Origin: Pirellulales bacterium
Lineage (GTDB): Bacteria > Planctomycetota > Planctomycetia > Pirellulales > PALSA-1355
Length of the DNA: 64,000 bases
Assembly (NCBI GenBank): GCA_963733035.1
Contig: CAVTBU010000007.1
Location: forward strand, 512,001-576,000
Reading direction: 5' to 3'
The position numbers were made by a program, and so were the translations under genes. A model generated the notes under the pieces. It did no database searches. It had not been told where the DNA came from and was given only the letters and a program-made list of their open reading frames with translations. Below, piece after piece: positions 17,713-43,614 of this stretch. Within the stretch, counting starts at the first letter, position 1, and the number at the start of each line of letters is the position of its first letter.

Positions 17713-18744
17713 CTACCCTCGCGGGTGGAACTGTTTGTGAATCTTCTTGAGGCGCGCCGGATCAACGTGCGTGTAGATTTGTGTTGTCGCAATGCTGGCG
17801 TGTCCCAACATTTCCTGCACCTGTCGCAAATCGGCCCCTCCGGTCAACAGATGCGTGGCAAAGCTGTGGCGAAGCGTGTGCGGACTCATGTCTGACGAAA
17901 TGCCCGCCATTGCGGCGTGCCGTTTGAACAGCTCCCAAATCCTCTCCCGCCGTAACCTCAATCCTCGCCGCGAAACCAGCAGCCATGGCGGCGGCGGCGC
18001 GCGATGCGCCACGCATTTGGGGCGCTCATGGGCCAAATAGTCGCGCACCGCTTGGATGGCCCGCTTGCCCAACGGCACCAGCCGTTCCTTGTTTCCCTTG
18101 CCCTTGCACAGGCAGTAACCTTCGTCCAGATGAGCATCGACGACCTGCAGGTGCGAGATCTCCGACGCCCGGCAACCCGTGGCATAGAGTAATTCAAGAA
18201 GCGCCCGATCGCGGCGCCACAGTGGTTCGCCCCGTTTAGGGCTATCGAGCAGCCGTTCGACCATCCCGGGCGTCAACACGTGCGGCACGCGCTCCCACAG
18301 CTTTTGGCTGCCCAGCAACTCCGCCAGATTCTCGTGCAAGAGTCCTTCGAGCTGCAGATAGCGGAAGAAAATCCGTAGCGACGCCAGGTGCCGTGCAATG
18401 CTGGCCGGAGCCAGCTTGCGCTCGTGTAGCCAGCCGGCATAGTCGGCCAGTTCCTGAATCGTGAGCGTCTGCACGCGCCGACCTGCCAGCCAACCGTAGA
18501 ATCGCTTCATGTCGCGGTGGTAGGCCGCCACGGTGTTTTCCGACAGGTGGCACTCCGACCGCAGATATTCCACGAACGATTCGATCCAGCGGCCCGTGAT
18601 TGCACCGCTTGCCACGGCGGCCGGCTTGAGCAGTTTTCGACGCGGTCCGCCCATGAACGTGTGCCTAGGGCCTCGTGAGGGAATTGCCGGCCTCGCTGCA
18701 AGCGGGATCTTGGCCGGACTCACCTCTTTGGTTCGTCGGGCCAA
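17713..18744 (-). CDS. xerD: site-specific tyrosine recombinase XerD
   Basis: SENTVAAYHRD, LELLYATGCRASE, GKGNKER, SPHTLRHSFATHLL, LGHASIATTQIYTHV, HPRG; start uncertain. Confidence 0.9.
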   Translation of the reverse strand: MARRTKEVSPAKIPLAARPAIPSRGPRHTFMGGPRRKLLKPAAVASGAITGRWIESFVEYLRSECHLSENTVAAYHRDMKRFYGWLAGRRVQTLTIQELADYAGWLHERKLAPASIARHLASLRIFFRYLQLEGLLHENLAELLGSQKLWERVPHVLTPGMVERLLDSPKRGEPLWRRDRALLELLYATGCRASEISHLQVVDAHLDEGYCLCKGKGNKERLVPLGKRAIQAVRDYLAHERPKCVAHRAPPPPWLLVSRRGLRLRRERIWELFKRHAAMAGISSDMSPHTLRHSFATHLLTGGADLRQVQEMLGHASIATTQIYTHVDPARLKKIHKQFHPRG

Positions 18745-23911: not shown

Positions 23912-24994
23912 TTACGCTTCGGAGCCCATCTCGCGGCGGAGTTGTTGCCGATCGTAATCCATCAGGGCGTCGGTGAGCACTTGCATGTCGCCGGCCAGAA
24001 TGGCATCCAGCTTGTAGAGCGTCAAATTGATGCGGTGATCGGAGACCCGATTCTCGGCGAAGTTGTAGGTGCGGATTCGCTGGCTGCGGTCGCCCGATCC
24101 GACGAGCGTCTTGCGTTCGCTCGAGCGCTTGGCATGTTCGGCCTCGCGTTTGGCTTCGTACAGCCGGGTTTTGAGCACGCGGATGCGCTTGGCAAAGTTC
24201 TTGTGCTGGCTCTTTTCGTCCTGGCACTGCACGACGATGCCGGTTTCCAGGTGCGTCAGCCGAATGGCCGAGGCCGTCTTGTTCACGTGCTGACCGCCGG
24301 GCCCGCTGGCACAAAACGTGTCCTTGCGAAAATCCTCGGGCTTCAGGTCGATTTCCACGTCCTCCGGCTCCGGAAGCACGGCCACGGTGGCCGCCGAAGT
24401 GTGAATCCGCCCCTTGGTTTCGGTCTCGGGCACGCGCTGCACGCGATGACCGCCGCTTTCGTATTGCAGCTCGCGGAACACGCCCTCGCCTTCGATGCCG
24501 AGGATGATTTCCTTGAAGCCGCCCAGCTCCGTGGAGTTCATATCCAGAACTTCCATCTTCCAGCCTTTGTTCTCGGCATGGTGCTTGTACATTTCGTACA
24601 GATCGCGAGCGAACAGGGCGGCCTCGTCGCCGCCGGTGCCGGCGCGGATTTCCATCACCACGCGATCGCGCTGGGCGTCTTCGCCGCCGATGGTCATGCC
24701 CAGCAGTTCGTCCCACAGGTTTTCGCGCTCGTGGCGAAGCGTTGGCAGTTCGCCCTCGGCCATTTCGCGTAGTTCGGCGTCGTGTCCCTCGATCATTTCC
24801 TGGGCTTCGCCGATCTGCGCGTTGAGCGACTTGAAGCGTCGATACTTCTTGGCCAGGCGCCCCAGCGAGCCATGTTCGCGCGCGGCGGCAGCCACGAGTG
24901 CCGGCTGGGCCAGCACCTCTGGATCGACGAGCTGGCGTTCCAACTCCTCGAAGCGAGCCAGTTTGTCATCGAGCATGGTGCGCAGTGATGACAC
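23912..24994 (-). CDS. prfA: peptide chain release factor 1
   Basis: [41 protein letters not shown] before GTG. Confidence 0.96.
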
Positions 24995-25160
24995 CGGGGG
25001 TGTCCTCCAAAAAGAAAGCGCCTGAATTGACCCTCCGTGGCACCGAACTCTCGAGCATGCAGCCGCGCGGGCTTGGTGTGCGCGGCGGCGGGCAGGCAAA
25101 CAAAAACGCCGCCCACCCGCCAATCTCCGGCAGGCCGCGCGGCGCGATTGTTCTGGTCAG

Positions 25161-25412
25161 CTACGACTCGGTCTTGGCTTCGGCCTTCTTGCCACGCTTC
25201 AGGCTGGCATAACCGGCCGAAGCGAACTTGTTCTTGAACTTCTCGATCCGTCCGGCCGTGTCGACGAATTTCAGCTTGCCCGTGTAGAACGGATGGCAAG
25301 CGTTGCAAATGTCGACCTTCAGCTCGGGACGCGTGCTGCGCGTGGTAAACGAGTTGCCACAGCCGCACTTGACCAAGGTTACGTAGTACTGGGGATGGAT
25401 GTCTTTCTTCAT
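25161..25412 (-). CDS. rpmE: 50S ribosomal protein L31 (Zn-binding type)
   Basis: [29 protein letters not shown]. Confidence 0.96.
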
Positions 25413-25603
25413 AACTTTCACCACGACCATTGTAGCCGCCTGGGCAAGACCCAAACGGACCGTAAAAGGCCGCTCCGCGGGAGAAAAAGGCAAACTAAGA
25501 GTTTAGCAATGCAGGGTTTAAGCCACAAGGGGGCCGCTCTGTAATGGCCGCCGCCAACGTGGAAATTCCCGCGGTTTGCGTCCTTTGGATGATCCCTTTC
25601 ATT

Positions 25604-26388
25604 CTCAAGCGGTGTTCGGCGGATTGGTCTTTGTTCGGCCCGATAGCGCACCGCGCGCGGGTCGCCACCGCGCAGGATCGGCCGACGATTGGCCCGATTT
25701 GGAATTTCGAAGATTTTCGAGTGGCTCGGTTTTCGCGCTGCACTTTTTGTGAATCTTTTCATTCCTAAGGGAGGCCGAAAAACCGAACAATTCACCTCCC
25801 CAAATCCTGCATTTGCCCTCGTTTGACCATCAAAAAAACCTCCATCGCCCGAGTCCGAAATCTCCCGACCGTAGCCTAGCCCAATCGCTGGCCCGATTAC
25901 CAGAGACAAACCGAGCAAGCGCTGCCGACGACCATCGGCGGCACGCATTGCAGCGGAAAAACTCCGCCCACGGGTTTCTCGCAAACGGCCGGCACTTCCC
26001 AGGTGCCCGAAGCATTACAATGTTATCCGGAGGCCCGTTCGAGTAGGTCAGGCCCTGGCCTGACGGATGTTCGACAACGCCTCCCCGTCAGGCCAGGGCC
26101 TGACCTACTTTTAATGCGAACGCGAGGATTGAGAAGGTTCCTGAGAGCCGATTCACAGCGATCGTCTGTACAAAATCCATGCTCACAAAACCCATCGCCG
26201 TTTTCTCGCTTAGCGCGCTGCTGCTGCCGATATCCCGTCGCGGCCGCCCGCACGTGAGTTTCTGGCCGGGCCGGCGGCGGCAAAAGTTCCGGCGGCACCT
26301 ATTTTGGAACGGGGGACTCGGGGCGGAAGTGATGGGAGGGTGCCCCAGGTGGTTTCTGGAAAGGGTTTGCATCCCCTTAGGTTACTCT
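25604..26388. repeat. ~0.8-kb non-coding direct repeat, copy 1
   Basis: Near-identical to 28707-29473 (e.g. gattggcccgatttggaatttcgaagattttcgagtggctcgg; aaaaccgaacaattcacctccccaaatcc). Confidence 0.92.
26043..26108. repeat. GTAG-family REP inverted doublet (REPIN-like)
   Basis: GTAG-GTCAGGCCCTGGCCTGAC ... GTCAGGCCAGGGCCTGAC-CTAC. Confidence 0.85.
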
Positions 26389-26449
26389 TGCAATGGGCTG
26401 GCGTGTCGGAAATGAAGACGCGCTTTTGGGCTAGCTGGCGAGGCGTCGA

Positions 26450-27576
26450 ATGCACTTTTTCTGCATAGCCACCGTCTGTGTTGGCAGTGTCTTGGGATCG
26501 GAGTGTGACGAACTCATCAATGCGAACGCGCAATCGCTGAGTCTCATTCGAACAATTGAAGTTGAGTACGAGCTCGAAACGCTTGATCCCTCGGATTCGA
26601 CCGCACTGAAGTCGCAGTGGACTAAAGACGGTGACTTAGAGCGATTTGGTCGCTCACATGAGCCAGACAGAAACTCGGTTGATGTCGTCCAAGACGGTGA
26701 GACTGTACGGCAGTTGCGGAATTGGGTTCCCAATACACCGCTGACTCCGACGTATCAGAATGGCGTTGAGGCAGAGGTGCGGCCACAGACCATTTACCCG
26801 GCGAGCGCAATTTCGCCAGCGTATCAGCTCTGCATGGAACTCTCGGCGGTTCCCAAATGGTCACTTGCCGAGTTGGCCAAAGTATCGCCTCGCACCGAGT
26901 GCAAGGGAAAGGTTGATCGTGGTGGAGAGACATTGTGGCTGATAAAGCTCGAATCGCCCGATGACGCGCCGGCCGAGGAGTCTAAGAATCGCTTCGAAGT
27001 GTTTCTTGATCCGTCTCACGGGTATGCGATTCGTCGTTTGGTCGTGCATCGTGATGAGAAGCTTCCCGATGGGCGTTCACGGGTGTATTCTCATTGTCAT
27101 GAAGTTTTTGAGTACAAGGATTTTGGCGATGGAGTGTTCTTGCCCATTCACGTTAAGCACGGGACGTACTCTGGGGGCGAGGATCTGTGGGAGACGGAGG
27201 TCAAGGTGCGAGTCGCTCGTGTGAATGAGGTCATTCCGCCGGAGAAGTTTGAGTTAAAATGGCCGCAATTCGCAATCGTCAAGTATTTTCCGGCCGTCAA
27301 TGGGCAAGTGAAATTCGACGTATGGGGAAGCGATGGGCCGATTGAAACCTTCGTTGGCAACGTCGATCTAAGGCGTTGGTCGGAGGACCGGCAACGAACT
27401 GATCCAGAGTTTGCGGAGAGTCTAAGTTTAATGGAGCAAAAGCTGCTTCGCACCAACGCTCAAGGAGCTGGCTTTCGAACGTGGTTGATAGCGATCAACG
27501 TATTTGTGTGTGCAGGCGCGGCGCGTACATTTTCCGCCGATTTCTATATCGGCGCCACCGTGAGGTGCTTCCGTGA
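26450..27576 (+). CDS. hypothetical exported protein with C-terminal membrane anchor (cargo)
   Basis: Lower-GC ORF with signal-like N-terminus; C-terminus WLIAINVFVCAGA then YIFRRFLYRR* after a one-base fix near 27520; stop overlaps next GTG. Confidence 0.65.
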
Positions 27577-28619
27577 AGCCGGCAATTCGGCTGTTGCCAG
27601 TCGCGATTTTCTGCGTTGTTTCCATTGGCATTGGATCCGCAATTGCTCGTTGGGCTCGAACACCGAAATCAGTTGTATTTGATCCGCCGACGGTCAACGT
27701 CGAGCGTGAGGTGCTGCACGGTACTCGTCTCGATGTGCGGTTTGAGTTGGTCAATCAGTCGGCTGAAAGGATAGCGATCAGCAAGCTGGTTGGTTCTTGC
27801 GGCTGCATGGTATTGTCCGGTGATAGCGGTCCGCTGCCCACGCCACTAAACATAGAACCAAATGGGCGTACTGCGATTGCAGTGAAGGTGAGAACCGATC
27901 GTGGGAACGGGGTAGGGTCGCGCGACTTTACTGTCATGGCGTATGGAAAGAGTGCAGGCGGCAAGCAAATAGCCGCGGTCGGCAGGATCCAAGTAACTCT
28001 CTTGTCTGGCCTTCAGGCAGAACCTGCATACGTGCTCCTTCGGAATATTAATTCGCAAGATGAGCGGTCTGTCGAAATTGAGGTGGCGGATACTCTGACG
28101 GACCCAGGTGTCCGGATACGCGACGTTGTAGTGAGCGATCCCGCGCGTATGAGCGTTGAATTGAGACAAGCCGCGGGCGCGTCGAAGGTTTTTGGCGACA
28201 GCGGCCTCGGAAGGCAACGCGCCATTCTAGTGCTCAAGTATCGGCCCTGCATAACTGCGGGGCTCGAGCGTGATAAGGTTACCGTTGTGCCGGAAGATCC
28301 CATCTACCCAATCCTGGAGATTCCGGTTGAGTGCTCGGTCGCTGGCCCCGGTTTCGGGTTCGTTCCTAGTAGCCTCACTTTTACCGAGACATTTGACACG
28401 GTCACTCGTGAGATAGCTTTTAAGGCGGATGATTCGGTGACGCTTTCGGTTGAAAAATGCCCGCCTGGCATAGCGGCTAAGATTATCCAGGGGCCTCGCC
28501 GTCGCATCGTTTCGATAACCTGCGAGAAGAATGCATTTCGGAATGGCGACTGCGAATTGGTGTTTCTCGTTGACGGTGTTGCAACGCCTTACTCGCTTCG
28601 AAGTCGCCCAATCGAATGA
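27573..28619 (+). CDS. DUF1573-like Ig-fold membrane-anchored protein (cargo)
   Basis: N-terminal TM; 'FELVNQS..I..LVGSCGC' DUF1573-like signature. Confidence 0.7.
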   Translation: MKPAIRLLPVAIFCVVSIGIGSAIARWARTPKSVVFDPPTVNVEREVLHGTRLDVRFELVNQSAERIAISKLVGSCGCMVLSGDSGPLPTPLNIEPNGRTAIAVKVRTDRGNGVGSRDFTVMAYGKSAGGKQIAAVGRIQVTLLSGLQAEPAYVLLRNINSQDERSVEIEVADTLTDPGVRIRDVVVSDPARMSVELRQAAGASKVFGDSGLGRQRAILVLKYRPCITAGLERDKVTVVPEDPIYPILEIPVECSVAGPGFGFVPSSLTFTETFDTVTREIAFKADDSVTLSVEKCPPGIAAKIIQGPRRRIVSITCEKNAFRNGDCELVFLVDGVATPYSLRSRPIE

Positions 28620-28707
28620 GTGTGCGAGCAGTGCGAGGCATGCGCGCATCGTACCGCCAGAACCGCTCGTCGGCAAGAAAAAAGGTTCGCGTCCCCTTTA
28701 ATTGCTC
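28620..28707 (-). mobile_element. Y1/RAYT transposase 5'-end remnant plus terminal site
   Basis: Minus strand reads site (AAAGGGGACGCGAACCTTT) then ATG CCT CGC ACT GCT CGC ACA (MPRTART); nearly identical to 29572-29660. Confidence 0.7.
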
Positions 28708-29473
28708 TCAAGTGGTGTTCGACGGATTGGTCTTTGTTCGGCCCGATAGCGCAGCCGGCCGTGGGTCGCCACCGCGCTGGATCGGCCGACGATTGGCCCG
28801 ATTTGGAATTTCGAAGATTTTCGAGTGGCTCGGTTTTCGCGCTTCACTTTTTGTGAATCTTTTCATTCCTAAGGGAGGCCGAAAAACCGAACAATTCACC
28901 TCCCCAAATCCTGCATTTGCCCTCGTTTGACCATCAAAAAAACCTCCATCGCCCGAGTCGAAATCTCCCGACCGTAGCCTAGCCCAATCGCTGGCCCGAT
29001 TCCAGAGACAAACCGAGAGCGCTGCCGACGACCATCGGCGGCACGCATTGCAGCGGAAAAACTCCGCCCACGGGTTTTCGCAAACGGCCGGCACTTCCCA
29101 GGTGCCGAAGCATTACAATGTCAGTCGGAGGCTTCGAGTAGGTCAGGCCTGGCCTGACGGATGTTCGACAACGCCTCCCCGTCAGGCCAGGGCCTGACCT
29201 ACTTTTAATGCGAACGCGAGGATTGAGAAGGTTCCTGAGAGCCCCTTCACAGCGATCGGCTGTACAAAATCCATGCTCACAAAACGCATCGCCGTTTTGT
29301 GGTTATCGCGCTGCTGCTGCCGATATCCGTCGCAGCCGCCCCACGATTTCGTCGGCCCGGTGACGGCTAAAGTCGGCGGAACTGTTTTGGAACGGGGACT
29401 CGGGGTGGAAGTGATGGGAGGGTTCTTCAGATGGTCCCAGGAAAAGGTTTGCGTCTTTGCGTCCCCTTAAGTT
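28707..29473. repeat. ~0.8-kb non-coding direct repeat, copy 2
   Basis: Matches 25604-26388 with scattered indels; diverges more in last ~150 nt. Confidence 0.92.
29138..29202. repeat. GTAG-family REP inverted doublet
   Basis: GTAGGTCAGGCCTGGCCTGAC ... GTCAGGCCAGGGCCTGACCTAC. Confidence 0.85.
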
Positions 29474-29518
29474 CTTCCGAGTTGCCGCTGAGCGACAAAT
29501 CAGTGATGTCCGATTTTC

Positions 29519-29672
29519 TACTCGCAGTTGGCGTTGGCCCGATTGAGGATATGATAAACACATCCGCCAGAGTGTGCGAGCCGTGCGAGGCATGCGCGCA
29601 TCGTACCGCCAGAACCGCTCGCCGGCAAGAGAAAAGGTTGGCGTCCACTTTAATTGCTCCCTTTAACTGCTC
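29519..29672 (-). mobile_element. Y1/RAYT transposase 5'-end remnant plus terminal site
   Basis: Minus strand MPRTART/(frame shift)GGCVYHILNRANA, resembling the N-terminus of IS200-like Y1 HUH transposases. Confidence 0.72.
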
Positions 29673-29693
29673 CAATTAGAAGCAGAACTCCTC

Positions 29694-30766
29694 ATGAGCA
29701 GCGTAGAAGATGAAGCAACAAAGCAAGGCGATTTGCTGCGGGACAAAGGCGATCTCGATGGAGCGATAGCTGCTTACACCGAAGGCCATTCGTCTGCATC
29801 CACAAAACGCTCAGTCGTATTTTCGCCGGGGCCAAGCTTACTTGCGAAAAGGCGAATTCAACAAGGCCATCGCCGACTGTAACAAAGCCATACAGCTTGA
29901 TCCGATGATGGCCGAGGCATATTGCTGGCCGGGGTTGCTCCACGGCAGGAACGGCGACCTCGACAAGGCAGCGACTGACTGCACGGAGGCTATTCGCCTC
30001 GACCCGCACATATGCCGAGGCATACTATGTCCGAGGGATGCGTTTTGGGCTGAAGGGTGATTTTGACAGAGCGATTGCTGACTGTACAGACGCTATTCGC
30101 CTCGACCCGAAGTTGCCTCACGCATTTCGAGGGCGAGCCGGTCTTCATGATAGGAAGGGTGAGTTCGACAAGGCGATTGCGGACTGGACGGAGGCATTCG
30201 GCTCGAACCGCAACGTGCGAAGACATATTGGGGTCGAGCCCATGTATATGAAAAGAAGAGCGAGTTCGACAAGGCGATTGCGGATTTCACGGAGTCCATT
30301 CGGCTCGATCCACAGATATGCCGAAGTCTATTGTGGGCGGGCCTATGCTTATTCTAAGAATGGTGAGTTCGACAAGGCTATCGCTGACTACATCGAGGCC
30401 ATCAGACTCGATCCGAAGCATGCCACGGCGTAATAAAACCGTGCCTTGATCTACAGACAAGAAGAGTGAGTTCGACAAGGCGATTGCCGACTTCACCGAG
30501 GTCATTCTGACTGAACCCGAAAGATGCCGAGGCGTACTACAACCGTGGCTGCGCCTACGGCAAGAAGGCTGACTACGACAAAGCGATCACCGACTTTAAA
30601 GAGGCGATTCGGATCAATCCGAAAAATGGGTACACGTTTCTATGCTCGGGGCTGGTGCGTACTGGCAGAAAGACGAGAAAGGCAAAGCCACGCCGATTTC
30701 GCACAAGCCGAGAAACTTGGGATACAAAGCGGGCCAGGTCGACGAACATCAGAGGACGGGGAGTAA
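29694..30766 (+). pseudogene. decayed tetratricopeptide repeat gene (cargo)
   Basis: ~102-nt periodic TTCGACAAGGCGATTGC (FDKAIAD..EAIRLDP); several frameshifts and in-frame stops (30431, 30508). Confidence 0.85.
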
Positions 30767-31086
30767 CTTAAAGGGACGCAAAGGACGCAAGCCTTTTTTC
30801 CGTTTTGTTGCCGGCACGGAACACTGCCGTGCGATGTAGCCTAATGCCGCGCACTGCTTCGTGATACTTCTGGGTGCACATGTTTACTCATCCCGCCATG
30901 GGGCCAGCGAGCACGTTACACGATGGCTACAGATGACCTGCCACGGCCGCCCGCACATGAGTTTTATGCCTGGCAGGCGGCAAAAGTTTCGGCGGCACGT
31001 GTTTCGGAACGGGGACTCGGTGCCGAAGTGATGTGAGGGTTATCCGGGTGGTTCCAGCGAAAGGTTTGCGTCCGCTTAGGTTACTC
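30761..31086 (+). mobile_element. MITE-like internally deleted Y1-transposase element
   Basis: Ends GAGTAACTTAAAGGGACGCAAA and TTTGCGTCCGCTTAGGTTACTC are imperfect inverted repeats; inside are an ATG CCG CGC ACT GCT (MPRTA) remnant and a segment homologous to 26240-26388. Confidence 0.68.
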
Positions 31087-31107
31087 TGGACCAAGACGAT
31101 AGCACAT

Positions 31108-31536
31108 ATGCGGTTATCTCGACTCATAATGGCGCTCGCCCTGATTGGGATGTGCATTGGTGTTGTCATTCTGTTTTTTGCACCGGTTTTGCACTTTGCG
31201 TTTACGATTGACGAGGCGAAGTCAAGATTCCGAAGTAGATCCGCCGAGGCTCGCGAGACGATCGAGTTCGTTTATGGATACTACCTACGTCATTACAAAT
31301 GGCCGACAGAAGCGGAAACGGCCCAAATGGCCGTCAAGCCTCTTCCGCCCGAATGGCACTACGAGAGCCACCCTGACGGTCCGATAATCTATTGTCAGGG
31401 ACCCCACCATATGGCAATTGCCTACTATTTTTCTCCACCAATACGTGGAAAGATAGCCAACGAGTGGGTGTTGTCGGTCGAAGGAACTAAGGAGCGGTTT
31501 TCTTTTGAACGTGAATACACCGCGAATACATTCTGA
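31108..31536 (+). CDS. hypothetical membrane-anchored protein (cargo)
   Basis: Lower-GC ORF, N-terminal TM, starts ~21 nt after terminal site. Confidence 0.65.
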   Translation: MRLSRLIMALALIGMCIGVVILFFAPVLHFAFTIDEAKSRFRSRSAEARETIEFVYGYYLRHYKWPTEAETAQMAVKPLPPEWHYESHPDGPIIYCQGPHHMAIAYYFSPPIRGKIANEWVLSVEGTKERFSFEREYTANTF

Positions 31537-31907
31537 AGAGGAGCCCGTTGCCGCGGTCGTGCTTTCGACGGACCATCGGCGCAGGCTAGGGCGATAGCAC
31601 GTTAGGCAATTTCAAGAGGAAACAAGCGCCAGCGGACCTTAGACACTCGACTCATGCGAGGGTGGCCCGGACAACTTTGTTGTCCAGGTGTCGCAGGCAC
31701 AGGAGGGTCGAGAATTGCCGCGTTGCGCCCAGTTGAAATGGGATCGCGCTGACGACGGCTCCAATTGCTTCGCAACACCGACAACGAGTTGTCCGTGCCG
31801 CCCGCGTTATTTCCGCGCCCGTGCGACAAGGACTTATATACGACTGTTGAATTAGCGTTGTCTAGATCCAAAGGTAGTCCCAAGATGCGCTGGCTCCTGG
31901 GTGTAGT

Positions 31908-32396
31908 TTGGTCGACGGTTTAGCGATCAAGGTGCGAATGCTGCGACATCTGATGCTTAGCGTGTGCCTATTCGCGTTTGGCGCGATCGTATACTACGGT
32001 TGGAGTTTTCTTTCCATCAGGTCGTCATTACATCACGCAACGGCAACCGAGATTGTCGACAGAGTCCGCGTTAGCCTTGAGTCTGCCGACTATATTCGAA
32101 TAACTCCGTATGAGGATGGGCAGCCTGGACGAGTGCGCTTGATAGATGACAAATCCGAATTGCGGCGCTTAGCATCACTCATTGGTGCCGCGTCAGACCC
32201 GGAGGATTGGGCTATCGCTGCCGTATATTCGTGTAGGATCGATGTCTACGGCGATACCCGCGTCACGCTGAATATTGCAGGCGGCTACATGTCTGTGGGC
32301 AATTGGGGAAGCAATTCGCGATTAGTGCGCATGAATGATGAGTCCGTTGATGAACTGGCAAGGCTAGTCGGACATTTGTATGTCATGAACAAATGA
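31908..32396 (+). CDS. hypothetical membrane-anchored protein (cargo)
   Basis: Lower-GC ORF with N-terminal TM; start may be 31938. Confidence 0.6.
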   Translation: MVDGLAIKVRMLRHLMLSVCLFAFGAIVYYGWSFLSIRSSLHHATATEIVDRVRVSLESADYIRITPYEDGQPGRVRLIDDKSELRRLASLIGAASDPEDWAIAAVYSCRIDVYGDTRVTLNIAGGYMSVGNWGSNSRLVRMNDESVDELARLVGHLYVMNK

Positions 32397-32484
32397 GCGT
32401 GTTCTTGTGCAATGGAGGATTGTCGGCACGCATCGCGGGTCATGTTCACGTCTGAACGCTTCGCGTGCCACGGAACGTTCGACG

Positions 32485-32640
32485 GGGGTAGCTAAAGGGG
32501 ACGTAAACCTTGTCCTTGCGAGCGGACGACACTGCCGGTGCGATGCTTACCGCGCCTCGCAGTGCTCGCACGTCACAGTGCGGACATGTTTATCATATCC
32601 GCAATCGGACCAATGTCCGACTGCGGGCGTTTCGCGGGTA
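32485..32640 (+). mobile_element. terminal site plus Y1 transposase 5' remnant
   Basis: CTAAAGGGGACGTAAACCTT followed by PRSARTSQCGHVYHIRNRTN, homologous to the 29519-29672 reverse complement. Confidence 0.7.
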
Positions 32641-32757
32641 CCGCTGGGTCGGACGTGTGCGACTCACGCCTCGGCCCGCTGGATTCGGGGCGACTGTCCT
32701 GCCGGATCCGGGTGGGGCTGTGATGCGGTTCGACGGACGGACGTCCGGTGGATTTCT

Positions 32758-32780
32758 GTCAGGCCAGGGCCGTGACCTAC
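32758..32780 (-). repeat. single degenerate GTAG REP
   Basis: GTCAGGCCAGGGCCGTGACCTAC. Confidence 0.7.
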
Positions 32781-32965
32781 TTGGCTAACCCGACGCGCGA
32801 GCGAGGGGGTTTGCTTTTTTCTCCCTCGATTGCGCGTCGGGTTAGTGGGTGAGGCGGCTCAAAATTCTTGGTAATTCCGCCAAGATCAAGCATACTGGAA
32901 CGAATACCTGGCGGCTGATTCTGTTGTGTTCGGGCCAGGGCCTGTGGCCGCTCTAGTCTTTGGGG

Positions 32966-33316
32966 ATGAAACAGATGCATGATCTCATTTCAAAACTGAA
33001 TGGCGGCGAGATTCTGGGCTTGTTCGGGATCATCCTCGGCCTGATCGGCCTGGTGGGCGGATTGTCGGTGGGTTTTGTGAAAGTGATGTCTGAATACTAT
33101 CGCAAGACGCAGCTCGACGAGATGGAAGCGACGCTGAAGATGGAAATGATCCAACGCGGCATGTCGGCCGACGAGATTGCCAAGGTGCTCGAAGCCAAAA
33201 TGGGGTCCTCGAAATCTGCCTGGCAAGAGGTCCTCAGCAAGCTGGCGGTCGCGCCGACTCGCGCGGCAATGCAAGGTCGCTACGGCCGTTTCGGTACGCA
33301 ACAAGACACTCCTTGA
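32966..33316 (+). CDS. small membrane protein
   Basis: TM followed by 'LKMEMIQRGMSADEIAKVLE'; host-like codon usage. Confidence 0.7.
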   Translation: MKQMHDLISKLNGGEILGLFGIILGLIGLVGGLSVGFVKVMSEYYRKTQLDEMEATLKMEMIQRGMSADEIAKVLEAKMGSSKSAWQEVLSKLAVAPTRAAMQGRYGRFGTQQDTP

Positions 33317-33357
33317 AACGCCGGCCGGCACCAAAATCTCAACCGGGCACCGAAATC

Positions 33358-35063
33358 TCAACTGGGCGCGGTTGACGCGTTTTCGCCGCTCTCCGCGGCC
33401 GGTTCGGTTTCGTTCGCGTCGGCCGGTGCGTTTTCCGGCTCCTTCGCTTTTGGCTCTTTCGTCTCGGACTCCGCCGCCTCTTTCGTCGCCGCCGAGACTT
33501 CTTCCTTGAGCCACCTGGCCCGCAGCTGGTTCCCATGGCTTTGCGGGCTGGACTTGTCCGACTCGTAGAGTTCGATGGCCTTGGCGGTTTCGCCCGAGGC
33601 TTCGTAGGCGCGGGCCAGGTTGTAACGGGCCGAGGCAGCCCAGGGCGTTTCGCGTTCGGTGCCCAGCGTTCGTTCGGCCAGGAAGTGAATCGCGTTGGGA
33701 TAGTCTTGCTGCTCGAAGAAGATCAGGCCCAGCCAAAAGCTGGCATCTTGTTTGGCTTCGCGCATCAAGAGCGACTGCGCCGCCTCCATCTTGGCGATTG
33801 TCGAGCGCGTGTATCCTTGCGACATATACTGCCTGGCCGTCTCCGGCGAGAGGCGGAAGTCGAGAATGTAATCGTCGGGCGGCCGCGCGTTCAGGTACTC
33901 GGTCTTCGCCCCGTGGTCTCCTTCGTACTCCCCTTTGAAGTGCAACGCCCGGCCTTTTTTCAACGTTGGCATCACCTGGAAGACGACGGTCTCCTTCATA
34001 GCTTCGGTATTTTGCGTCGGCGTGCGGCGGGCCTTCGCCAGGTAGACTTCAAACGGCATCGGCCATAGCTTCGCTTCGGCCACGTGGGGCAGATTGGCGA
34101 CCTGGTCGGCGAGCTCATGTCCTGGCGACGTGAGCTTCACGCGATGGACGCCGGTCAGCCGCGACTCGACCAGGGCCATGCGCGAGACAGCGCCGGCGGC
34201 GCGGCTTCGACGTATGCCACCACGTGCTTGAGATCGGCGGCCTTCACCGGGTAGGGATGCTTCGCGTCGAGGTCGAGCTTCCGCAGCAGCGAGTCGTCCT
34301 CGGCAACTTCGCTCAGCGTGGCGACGCTGCCGGGCTTGGCGCCCGGTATCGGCAGGCCGAGCCGCGTGTCGAACAAGTAGAGCTGGTCGTTGGCAACCAA
34401 TGCCGGCAGCCAGGGACGCACATTACCCCCCTTCTTGTCGGCGAGGCCCAGAAACACGACGTTCAGCCCTTGCTGGCGGGCCAGCAAGACAAACAGCCAG
34501 GCCCTTTCCTGTGCGGTGCCGCGGCCATGCAGCAGCGTTTCGAAGGGCCGGTGGCGGATCCGCTTTTCCTCGCTTCCGCTCCAGTCGGCCTGGAGTTGGA
34601 TATTGCGCACGGTCCAATCAAACAGCCGCCTGGCCACGTCCAAATCCTCGAATTGATCGGCCCGGGCCTGGTTCGAGACGTTCCTTAGCCACACCGCTTC
34701 TTGCAAGTACCAGCCATCGTCGGGAGCCTGAAAGCGCATGCCCTCGAGCGAGCTCAATTCCGGCTGATTGCGGAGCTCGGGCGATAGTTCGGCCAGCAGC
34801 GGATCGGGCTTCCAATCGACTTGTGGCGTTTCCTGCAAGTACCACTGGTTCAGCCGATCGCACGTCTGTTTGAGAATCTGATCCGTGTCGAACTGTTCGA
34901 GCTGGTCAAGGTTCTCCGCAACCGACTCGAACAGCCCGCCGCGCGTGTTCGACTGCGAAGGGCCGCGGCGAGACGTGCCGGGCGATTGATCGTTGCAACC
35001 GACAAGCAGCGCAACCATCGAAAGCATAAGGGCGGCCATGCTGCAAAACTGCGCCAATTTCAC
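33358..35063 (-). CDS. lipoprotein with transglutaminase-like region and C-terminal TPR (frame break near 34180)
   Basis: Lipobox LLVGC; '[21 protein letters not shown]'; TPR '[10 protein letters not shown]'; two ORFs join. Confidence 0.72.
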
Positions 35064-43540: not shown

Positions 43541-43614
43541 GCCAGCGTAGCTTCAATTGGCAGAGCACCGCATTCGTAATGCGGGGGTTGCGGGTTCGAC
43601 TCCCGCCGCTGGCT
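43541..43614 (+). tRNA. tRNA-Thr(CGT)
   Basis: Acceptor GCCAGCG/CGCTGGC, D arm, anticodon arm CCGCA-TTCGTAA-TGCGG, T loop GGTTCGACTCC; CCA not encoded. Confidence 0.95.

Follow-up and report, generated by a model that had tools for sequence, protein, structure and literature searches.

A stretch of ∼7.3 kb beside the rpmE gene of a Pirellulales bacterium is most plausibly a variable island of lower GC content that is specific to the species, and the repeated 27-nt site that punctuates it would mark the remains of TIRtrons, compact elements in which a RAYT-like transposase gene (TIRYT) lies between terminal inverted repeats (TIRs). The island occupies 25.54–32.85 kb of the window, by which we mean the whole 64,000-nucleotide stretch that was analyzed (G000:C7:512001–576000, from a genome of 6.6 Mb in 10 contigs whose protein relatives are Pirellulales and other Planctomycetota). 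An initial annotation had explained the same sites as the borders of an integron-like array in which a transposase acting in trans captures genes. The reading that we prefer, to which we assign a probability of roughly 0.6 as a whole, is that the island is littered with decayed TIRtrons and that the open reading frames (ORFs) beside the sites, here called cargo, are island DNA and not recruited cassettes. For one part of it, the identity of the site as a TIRtron end, the sequence comparisons described below leave little doubt.

When the 400 nt on either side of every genome copy of the site were compared, homology was one-sided and stopped at the ...ACTC end of the site. Across the site-bearing loci, including independent metagenome loci, 433 high-scoring segment pairs (HSPs) ended at or before the site, 26 were located beyond it and 6 crossed it, which identifies the site as the terminus of an element. 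The genome contains nine Y1_Tnp matches, five of which are located within ∼1.5 kb of sites, and four full-length TIRYT-type genes. One transposase gene (C6:840986–841678) has an inverted site ∼45 nt upstream of its ATG and lacks the 3′ site, another (C7:380069–380737) has a co-oriented site ∼40 nt past its stop and is disrupted on the 5′ side, and a third (C6:844189–844857) has neither end site. Read together, loci L008 and L010 give the order inverted site, ∼45 nt, ATG to stop, ∼40 nt, site, and the ends of the intact unit, GGAG... and ...CTCC, face outward.

Complete units are present in G007, a genome from another genus of the same family, in which the site pattern occurs 11 times. Three units of 797–804 nt, located on three contigs and 95.7–97.8% identical, each consist of an inverted site, an ORF of 229–231 aa and a site. 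Their ends are 26–30-nt inverted repeats without hairpins, and no target duplication is visible at any of the three. The presence of three near-identical copies at different loci argues for recent movement. No empty (unfilled) site was recovered, and the locus in G001 that corresponds to a unit of the site and the repeat module M230 (described below) is too diverged for its junctions to be defined. The site has a patchy distribution, being present in 5 of 41 genomes and absent from all three same-genus genomes (G001–G003). Among 27 loci that encode TIRYT relatives in Pirellulales, Phycisphaerae, Tepidisphaeraceae and others, 22 contain an inverted repeat on both sides of the gene, at the same distances, that surpasses every one of 30 shuffles. 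The repeat motif drifts with protein divergence (GGGGACG.., GGGGTCGGGAGTC, GGGGTCAGG..), and the AAAGGGG[AT]C core is kept. Sixty metagenome loci contained the exact core; a Y1 homologue stood beside the site in 16, of which four were complete site-gene-site units (L081, L115, L120 and L125). The link between the site and a Y1/HUH transposase, proposed in the initial annotation, is thus borne out by inverted copies that flank RAYT-like Y1_Tnp genes in this genome as well as in a relative and in metagenomes, with the gene intact between two sites in the three G007 units and the four metagenome loci.

TIRYT proteins match Pfam Y1_Tnp with 33–49 bits (cut-off 23), and the HWH and RYVE.NP motifs are visible in their translations. 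Their sole NCBIfam match is REP_Tyr_transpos, with scores of 58–67 bits that fall below the equivalog cut-off of 80, so they are relatives of RAYT and not RAYT proper. TIRtrons are presented by Di Nocera et al. (2013; PMC3733652) as RAYT-like genes between long TIRs with GGGGWSAS as their common motif, the TIR families being moderately abundant and their members single, dimeric or grouped. Quentin et al. (2018; PMC6006769) equate TIRtron/TIRYT with TnpA-Y1 subclass 2.1, members of which have a C-terminal extension with similarity to helix-turn-helix (HTH) families (Bac_DnaA_C, HTH_23 or HTH_28). The elements described here share with TIRtrons the RAYT-like Y1/HUH gene, the long non-hairpin inverted repeats at fixed short distances, the GGGG[AT][CG].. 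core and the moderate abundance of copies that are single, dimeric and grouped (32 profile matches, four doublets). They differ in several respects. The core of the site, GGGGACGC/T, i.e. GGGGACGC/GGGGACGT, fits 7 of the 8 positions of GGGGWSAS, whereas the TIR of some more distant relatives carries GGGGTCAG, a full match; no Pfam HTH family was found at E ≤ 1 in the C-terminal ∼100 residues of three TIRYT proteins, unlike in subclass 2.1 (no structure prediction was made, and a divergent HTH may be present); and the ends are concentrated in ∼10 island-like clusters, most of them being solo. The Pirellulales family is not among the TIRtron examples consulted in the two papers. The repeat and its gene are a new family of this already described class.

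A search with the strict 27-nt consensus, allowing up to three mismatches, found four copies in the window (26361, 28681, 29633 and 31060; 0 expected in 100 shuffles), and an nhmmer profile built from the genome copies found seven. The count of eight in the initial annotation therefore holds for the seven copies of the profile search, but the eighth, at 25573, is degenerate and visible by eye only. The profile found 32 copies at E < 0.1 genome-wide, in ∼10 clusters. The 19-nt core of the site gave 24 genome-wide matches with up to three mismatches, versus 0–1 for the reversed motif and three shuffled motifs, and 41 with up to four mismatches, versus 7–11 for the control motifs. The initial annotation had also described a weak AAAGG..CCTTT hairpin in the site. 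This did not hold: when the eight window copies were folded as single-stranded DNA, none formed a hairpin better than chance (z −0.68 to +0.80 relative to shuffled sequence), and the CGTC tetranucleotide inside the core has no adjoining stem. The site is not a REP-like palindrome but a non-hairpin TIR, and the GTAG-type repetitive extragenic palindromic (REP) or REPIN sequence of a true RAYT is a different repeat, which is also present in the island.

Strong hairpins are formed when two copies meet. Four head-to-head doublets of ∼45 nt occur in the genome, each composed of the outer half of the site with an 11–14-bp stem (C5:1828537–1828572, C5:2311528–2311568, C5:1449899–1449949 and C6:884385–884440), and others are found in metagenome loci L090 and L137. 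Two of the doublets were folded and gave z values of −4.5 and −5.1. The doublets look like minimal two-ended derivatives, comparable to REPINs. Many sites end in a tandem duplication of their last 11–13 nt, and in others the GCGTC box occurs twice, at a spacing of 3–4 nt (window 29641–29672; C5:2532225, C3:15235, C5:2318691 and C5:2317457; L010 7993–8038; L012 of G007). Two IS256-family (Transposase_mut) genes with equal Pfam scores are located in two different site clusters (L005 12746–13909 and L010 12265–13428), and a gene for an AHH-nuclease protein, with one for an Imm11 immunity protein behind it, is located ∼1.3 kb from a site cluster (L006 5374–7384; C5:2645374–2647384).

Stumps of the transposase gene were detected on the inner side of 10 of the 32 sites, seven derived from its 5′ end and three from its 3′ end, and three of the ten are in the window. 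The features of the island and its left flank, in window coordinates, are the following:

25161–25493, minus strand: rpmE (ribosomal protein L31; Pfam Ribosomal_L31, 111 bits), conserved left flank of the island
25573–25602, plus strand: site 0, degenerate partial copy, recognized by eye and not reported by the profile at E ≤ 10
25603–26370, plus strand: unit X, with a diverged M230 (25687–25910), a GTAG-type REPIN (26042–26109) and an internally deleted small secreted-protein gene
26223–26360, 29385–29470 and 31002–31087: A module repeats, 3′ end of a small secreted-protein gene, preceding the sites at 26358, 29438 and 31058
26358–26389, plus strand: site 1 (TIR; nhmmer E 9e-4), preceded by the A module at 26223–26360
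26450–28619, plus strand: cargo 1, ORF 26450–27682 (410 aa, no family) and ORF 27573–28619 (348 aa, weak DUF1573)
28618–28714: B module, TIRYT leader and first ∼8 codons on the minus strand (28618–28680), plus site 2 (28670–28714, plus strand)
28706–29483, plus strand: unit X′, duplicate of X that differs by numerous 1-nt insertions or deletions, M230 at 28791–29012, ending in site 3 (29438–29483, plus strand)
29530–29672: longer TIRYT 5′ stump (∼30 codons, 29530–29632, minus strand) and site 4 (29622–29666, plus strand)
29694–30766, plus strand: tetratricopeptide repeat (TPR) pseudogene with eight repeats, split into 29694–29882, 30038–30433 and 30524–30766
30756–31087: gutted element of ∼326 nt, with inverted site 5 (30756–30806, minus strand), TIRYT 5′ stump on the plus strand (30807–30925, MPRTAS and a stop), A module and site 6 (31058–31087, plus strand)
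31108–32396, plus strand: cargo 3, ORFs 31108–31536 (142 aa) and 31908–32396 (162 aa), both with a hydrophobic N-terminal stretch and matching no family
32483–32750: inverted site 7 (32483–32516, minus strand, found with nhmmer), then a decayed TIRYT 5′ end on the plus strand (32517–32750)
32755–32780 and 32785–32845: GTAG-type REP copy and hairpin with a 23-bp stem, right edge of the island, recognized from inverted repeats

Four window sites carry TIRYT 5′ stumps, and one pair of sites bounds the 326-nt gutted element. The two minus-strand stumps (28618–28680 and 29530–29632) contain the first codons of the gene, MPRTAR..., each followed by the 5′ TIR. The B module is 94% identical to 29570–29659 and matches the 5′ end of the intact gene in L008 with 94.7% identity. 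The stretch 29530–29672 is 89% identical to L008 over 93 nt and ∼80% identical to the matching part of the G007 and L125 elements; the last ∼12 nt of its site 4 are duplicated in tandem. The two ends of the gutted element point away from each other, as they do in an intact unit, and its stump was recognized by eye, having been missed by the stump search. Behind site 7, tblastn aligned residues 2–28 at 32555–32635, and the stump search gave 83% identity over 72 nt. The A module has an intact counterpart, a gene at L004 6659–7174 that shares its 3′ end.

Part of the wreckage has another source. Unit X (769 nt) is 92.6% identical to X′ (28706–29452), its REPIN arms are 100% complementary, and it is homologous to both flanks of a RAYT gene at C5:2308608–2310265, with a match to the M230 profile inside X. 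That locus contains a true RAYT (L004 5964–6551; NCBIfam REP_Tyr_transpos, 193 bits) between GTAG-tagged REP palindromes, the palindrome-flanked stretch being L004 5870–6635 (C5:2308870–2309635), and then a secreted-protein gene and a weak site. X and X′ are transposase-less versions of this RAYT locus. GTAG REP palindromes are found three times in the island (26042–26109, ∼29150–29203 and 32755–32780), and site 3, at the end of X′, has a doubled GCGTC box. X and B are followed 3.1 kb further on by X′ and B′ (the latter at 29570–29659), with the order unchanged, which is most economically explained by one segmental duplication that added two sites. X′ differs from X by many single-base deletions and the TPR gene is frameshifted, while the adjoining 410- and 348-aa ORFs are intact, which favors real decay over a uniform sequencing error.

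As the initial annotation had stated, the cargo is co-oriented, with ORFs 26450–27682, 27573–28619, 31108–31536 and 31908–32396 all on the plus strand. The hydrophobic N-termini of the cargo proteins were recognized by eye only. The DUF1573 match of ORF 27573–28619 scores 24.8 bits, below the Pfam cut-off of 26.1. No homologue of ORF 26450–27682 was found in 32 other genomes of the family, and the four cargo proteins matched nothing in the other fetched loci and nothing elsewhere in the genome, in comparisons that did not extend to the large protein databases. ORF 27573–28619 runs into a transposase stump and its stop lies at the junction. The TPR gene had been described as one frame that stops inside the inverted site; it is in fact three ORFs, the eight 34-residue repeats being spaced by 102, 103, 102, 101, 103, 103 and 103 nt, which implies at least five frameshifts, but its last fragment does end at TAA 30764–30766, inside site 5. 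The stop of ORF 27573–28619 at a stump junction and that of the frameshifted TPR gene within a TIR are signs of rough insertion and deletion. Cargo had also been said to begin 20–60 nt after forward sites. This is the case for three window sites (ORF starts 63, 22–35 and 22 nt past the sites at 26361, 29633 and 31060), but not genome-wide, where a co-oriented ORF of at least 80 aa starts within 70 nt of 10 of the 32 sites (0.31) versus 0.52 of 3000 random positions. Spurious ORFs are frequent at 60% GC, which makes this test crude and weak evidence either way.

The limits of the island are defined by comparison with relatives. The prfA-rpmE flank is conserved, with synteny at rpmE in G001–G003, and the true start of rpmE is probably near 25418. 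Homology with the relatives on this side ends at ∼25435–25448 by BLAST and at ∼25535 by eye. The GC content is 0.535–0.579 over 25001–33000 and 0.606–0.661 in the 3 kb on each side; both this lower GC and the neighboring rpmE had been correctly described in the initial annotation. As for cargo at the rpmE locus among relatives, the island is absent in two same-genus genomes, G002 and G003, in which 717–726 nt with another small membrane gene separate the prfA-rpmE flank from the right-flank genes, and the island is therefore species-specific among the genomes searched. The site-bearing segments of clusters L004 and L008 likewise lack a syntenic match in G001–G003, and at a fourth locus, L007, syntenic flanks enclose a site-carrying insertion of 2.6 kb relative to G001. 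To the right of the island, the small ORF 32960–33316 differs from the gene at that position in G002/G003 (a ∼115-aa membrane protein), and look-alikes of it exist elsewhere in these genomes. Tandem repeats (2 × 19 nt and 2 × 24 nt) are present at 33327–33434, near or inside the 3′ part of a minus-strand TPR gene (33358–34179). There is no tRNA gene at the island, the sole tRNA gene of the window being at 43541, and Rfam searches over 24500–34000 returned chance-level matches only, the best being mraW RNA with 26.9 bits (gathering score 50) on the REPIN hairpin. A XerD gene (17713–18744; TIGR02225, 339.8 bits, cut-off 329.6) is located ∼7 kb to the left of the island and has no link to the sites.

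A further repeat, M230, accompanies the sites. It is 230–350 nt long and has 26 copies in the genome, 12 of them ∼90% alike; examples are window 25687–25910 and 28791–29012, C7:388345–388590, C6:846908–847153 and C3:10254–10499. In all nine site clusters that contain M230, the module is at the upstream edge and points toward the sites. Tallied per copy within 10 kb, 35 sites are downstream and 2 upstream, and both of the latter belong to the internal X′ copy. The GC content is 0.610 in the 4 kb upstream of M230 and 0.582 at 0.3–4 kb downstream (Wilcoxon p 1.3e-5, with copies that are not all independent). Four copies are fused to a site 467–484 nt downstream and form a discrete unit of ∼505–520 nt, and for 15 of the 26 the nearest site is more than 12 kb away. 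A search of 40 relatives, among them G007 with its 11 sites, recovered no M230, and the module and the site are therefore not inherited together. The M230/site unit has no Rfam match, and no recombinase or conserved gene accompanies the module. A structured RNA was considered and rejected (alifold −6.1 kcal/mol over 266 columns, no covariation support).

A TIRtron is a compact unit of ∼0.8 kb resembling an insertion sequence (IS), with the RAYT-like Y1/HUH TIRYT of ∼225–231 aa as its only gene. In the reading that we prefer, several TIRtrons and one classical RAYT/REPIN unit would have landed in the island, the former as whole elements inserted through TIRYT. The landed units would then have decayed by internal deletion, leaving solo ends on stumps of the transposase gene or on other debris, in an order of events that is itself conjectural, and the 3.1-kb segmental duplication ([X-site-...-B-site] twice) has added two sites. 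The cargo ORFs would be island DNA between or beside the wrecks.

Several points weigh against this reading. No intact two-ended unit was found in this genome, which has single-sided examples only, and the partner ends expected ∼750 nt from the stumps are missing for three of the four 5′ stumps. At the threshold used, 22 of the 32 sites have no transposase remnant, and for them a decayed insertion is an assumption. The B′ stump is longer than that of B, so a single deletion after the duplication does not explain cargo 1 and at least one further event is needed. Four successive units (X, cargo 1 with B, X′ and 29471–29659) have one orientation, each starting at an outer end and finishing with its own site, which is also expected from a cut-and-join cassette mechanism. 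The placement of nine site clusters downstream of M230 is not predicted by plain random insertion. Finally, we know of no experimental transposition of any TIRYT (no literature search was made).

The first alternative to consider is the array of the initial annotation, in which a TIRYT acting in trans would cut a single DNA strand at the outer ends of two direct sites and rejoin them, so that units of variable DNA plus one site would excise as circles and re-insert like attC cassettes. The head-to-tail units of the window, each with its own co-oriented site, would fit this, as would the stop of homology at the outer end in 433 of 465 HSPs, the start of both X and X′ directly past a site, the coincidence of site clusters with DNA missing from same-genus genomes and the four full-length TIRYT-type genes in the genome. 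Y1/HUH enzymes of the IS608 type work on a single strand, where they link a left cut to a right one. However, the orientation of the sites is mixed in the window (+ + + + + − + −) and in other clusters (+ − − −, + + − − − − + and + + + + −), ORFs are truncated or broken at sites and not neatly enclosed, two frames end in element-derived sequence, and transposase-gene stumps are still recognizable at 10 of 32 sites. The X/B pair is the only unit found twice, in an order that agrees with one 3.1-kb duplication; cargo proteins have no paralogue in the genome or homologue beside other sites, and ORF 26450–27682 has no homologue in 32 genomes of the family. Most of the cargo faces the outer ends of the sites and lies outside the element units, the TPR gene and cargo 3 being located between the outward-facing ends of neighboring wrecks. 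Metagenome loci of ∼10 kb contain at most two sites each, mostly one solo site, and more than one in 8 of 60. The site has no hairpin of its own, and the genome has no integron integrase. We thus found no positive evidence for an integron-like array and consider it unlikely. Contigs from four public soil-metagenome runs (word shares 0.10, 0.06, 0.00 and 0.00) were also compared with the island. Run X1, which may be the source sample, contained tiny contigs identical to 26049–26311 and 26864–27029 and one with a single gap on 27420–27589, and run X2 contained contigs of ∼89–95% identity over 25398–25766, 30458–30711, 31062–32125 and 32500–32803; 27861–28562 was uncovered in all four runs. Contig joints (26341 to 31062, 32606 to 30976, and 30711/31083 on opposite strands) are without exception located in the repeated A modules, stumps or sites and are indistinguishable from alignment ambiguity.

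A related mechanism would have TIRYT act on single ends in addition to inverted pairs, with cuts at co-oriented outer ends rejoined so that DNA plus one site is shuffled, deleted or imported; together with M230, which stands at the head of nearly all clusters, this would be an integrase-free cassette system that builds islands. We hold this to be improbable, and the regularity of M230 is the main reason for not rating it lower. The same regularity can be turned around, with the islands themselves as the unit: M230 would mark the proximal edge of about two dozen lower-GC segments, as the end of an integrative element or an acquisition hotspot, and the sites would be passengers. The 26 copies of M230, the fall in GC from 0.610 upstream to 0.582 downstream, the position of every site downstream of M230 in all nine shared clusters, the four copies fused to a site as a ∼505–520-nt unit and the 2.6-kb insertion relative to G001, which contains module, site and 1.8 kb of cargo, agree with such a view. 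It is set against the absence of M230 from the 40 relatives, G007 with its 11 sites among them, the 15 of 26 copies without a site within 12 kb, the lack of an accompanying recombinase or conserved gene, and the lack of a conserved RNA structure or Rfam match; at 80% identity to the relatives, no island end or target duplication could be defined. On balance this explanation, too, is rather improbable. Least probable of all, and only a faint prospect, is that the sites were exapted as cis-regulatory or transcript-end elements for adjacent cargo (outward promoter, operator for the TIRYT C-terminus, or terminator). Three cargo genes do begin 22–63 nt past the outer end of a site, TTTAAT in the site reads as near to a −10 hexamer, and head-to-head doublets form strong hairpins between genes. 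Yet co-oriented ORF starts are not in excess in the crude 70-nt test (0.31 versus 0.52 at random positions), single sites do not fold, and they occur in both orientations relative to neighboring ORFs.

The TIRtron remains can be compared with other mobile systems. Like REP/REPIN-RAYT units (REPtrons), they involve a Y1 homologue flanked by inverted copies of a short, genome-dispersed repeat, but the site is neither palindromic nor GTAG-tagged, the transposase scores 58–67 bits against a RAYT model cut-off of 80, and the family is multi-copy and patchy among relatives (5 of 41 genomes, 0 of 3 same-genus ones). The Y1_Tnp catalytic domain (HUH motif, catalytic Tyr) and the lack of a visible target duplication at three G007 copies are shared with IS200/IS605 elements, which have dissimilar subterminal hairpins and no terminal inverted repeats, whereas both ends here are inverted copies of one non-hairpin sequence. 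The resemblance to integron arrays and to clusters of attC sites lacking integrases (CALINs) is in outcome only: variable, mostly promoter-less-looking ORFs with a repeated site between them at a fixed chromosomal locus. Unlike in integrons, site orientation is mixed and ORFs are truncated at sites. A search for an integron integrase gave a best TIGR02249 match of 81 bits (cut-off 265), and the nearby recombinase is XerD; inspection and folding revealed no R″/R′ boxes or imperfect-palindrome fold in the site (no dedicated attC model was run). As with miniature inverted-repeat transposable elements (MITEs) and solo IS ends, internally deleted derivatives keep both ends (the 326-nt element at 30756–31087 and the four ∼45-nt doublets) and solo ends carry stumps, but one-ended copies are in the majority here, and several copies are joined to unrelated modules (A module, M230).

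To our knowledge, TIRtrons, named in 2013, have never been tested biochemically, and we know of no account of the way in which enzymes of a family that acts on single-stranded hairpins deal with plain inverted repeats. The Pirellulales family offers study material for this, comprising complete multi-copy units (G007), gutted two-ended derivatives, 45-nt doublets and many one-ended remnants, the last being concentrated in islands that have no counterpart in same-genus genomes. If the one-ended units move, they would provide a gene-shuffling route that is independent of integrons. If they are immobile, the locus is still a clear case of a cassette array being mimicked by the ends of decayed transposons, and this would call for caution in repeat-based annotation.

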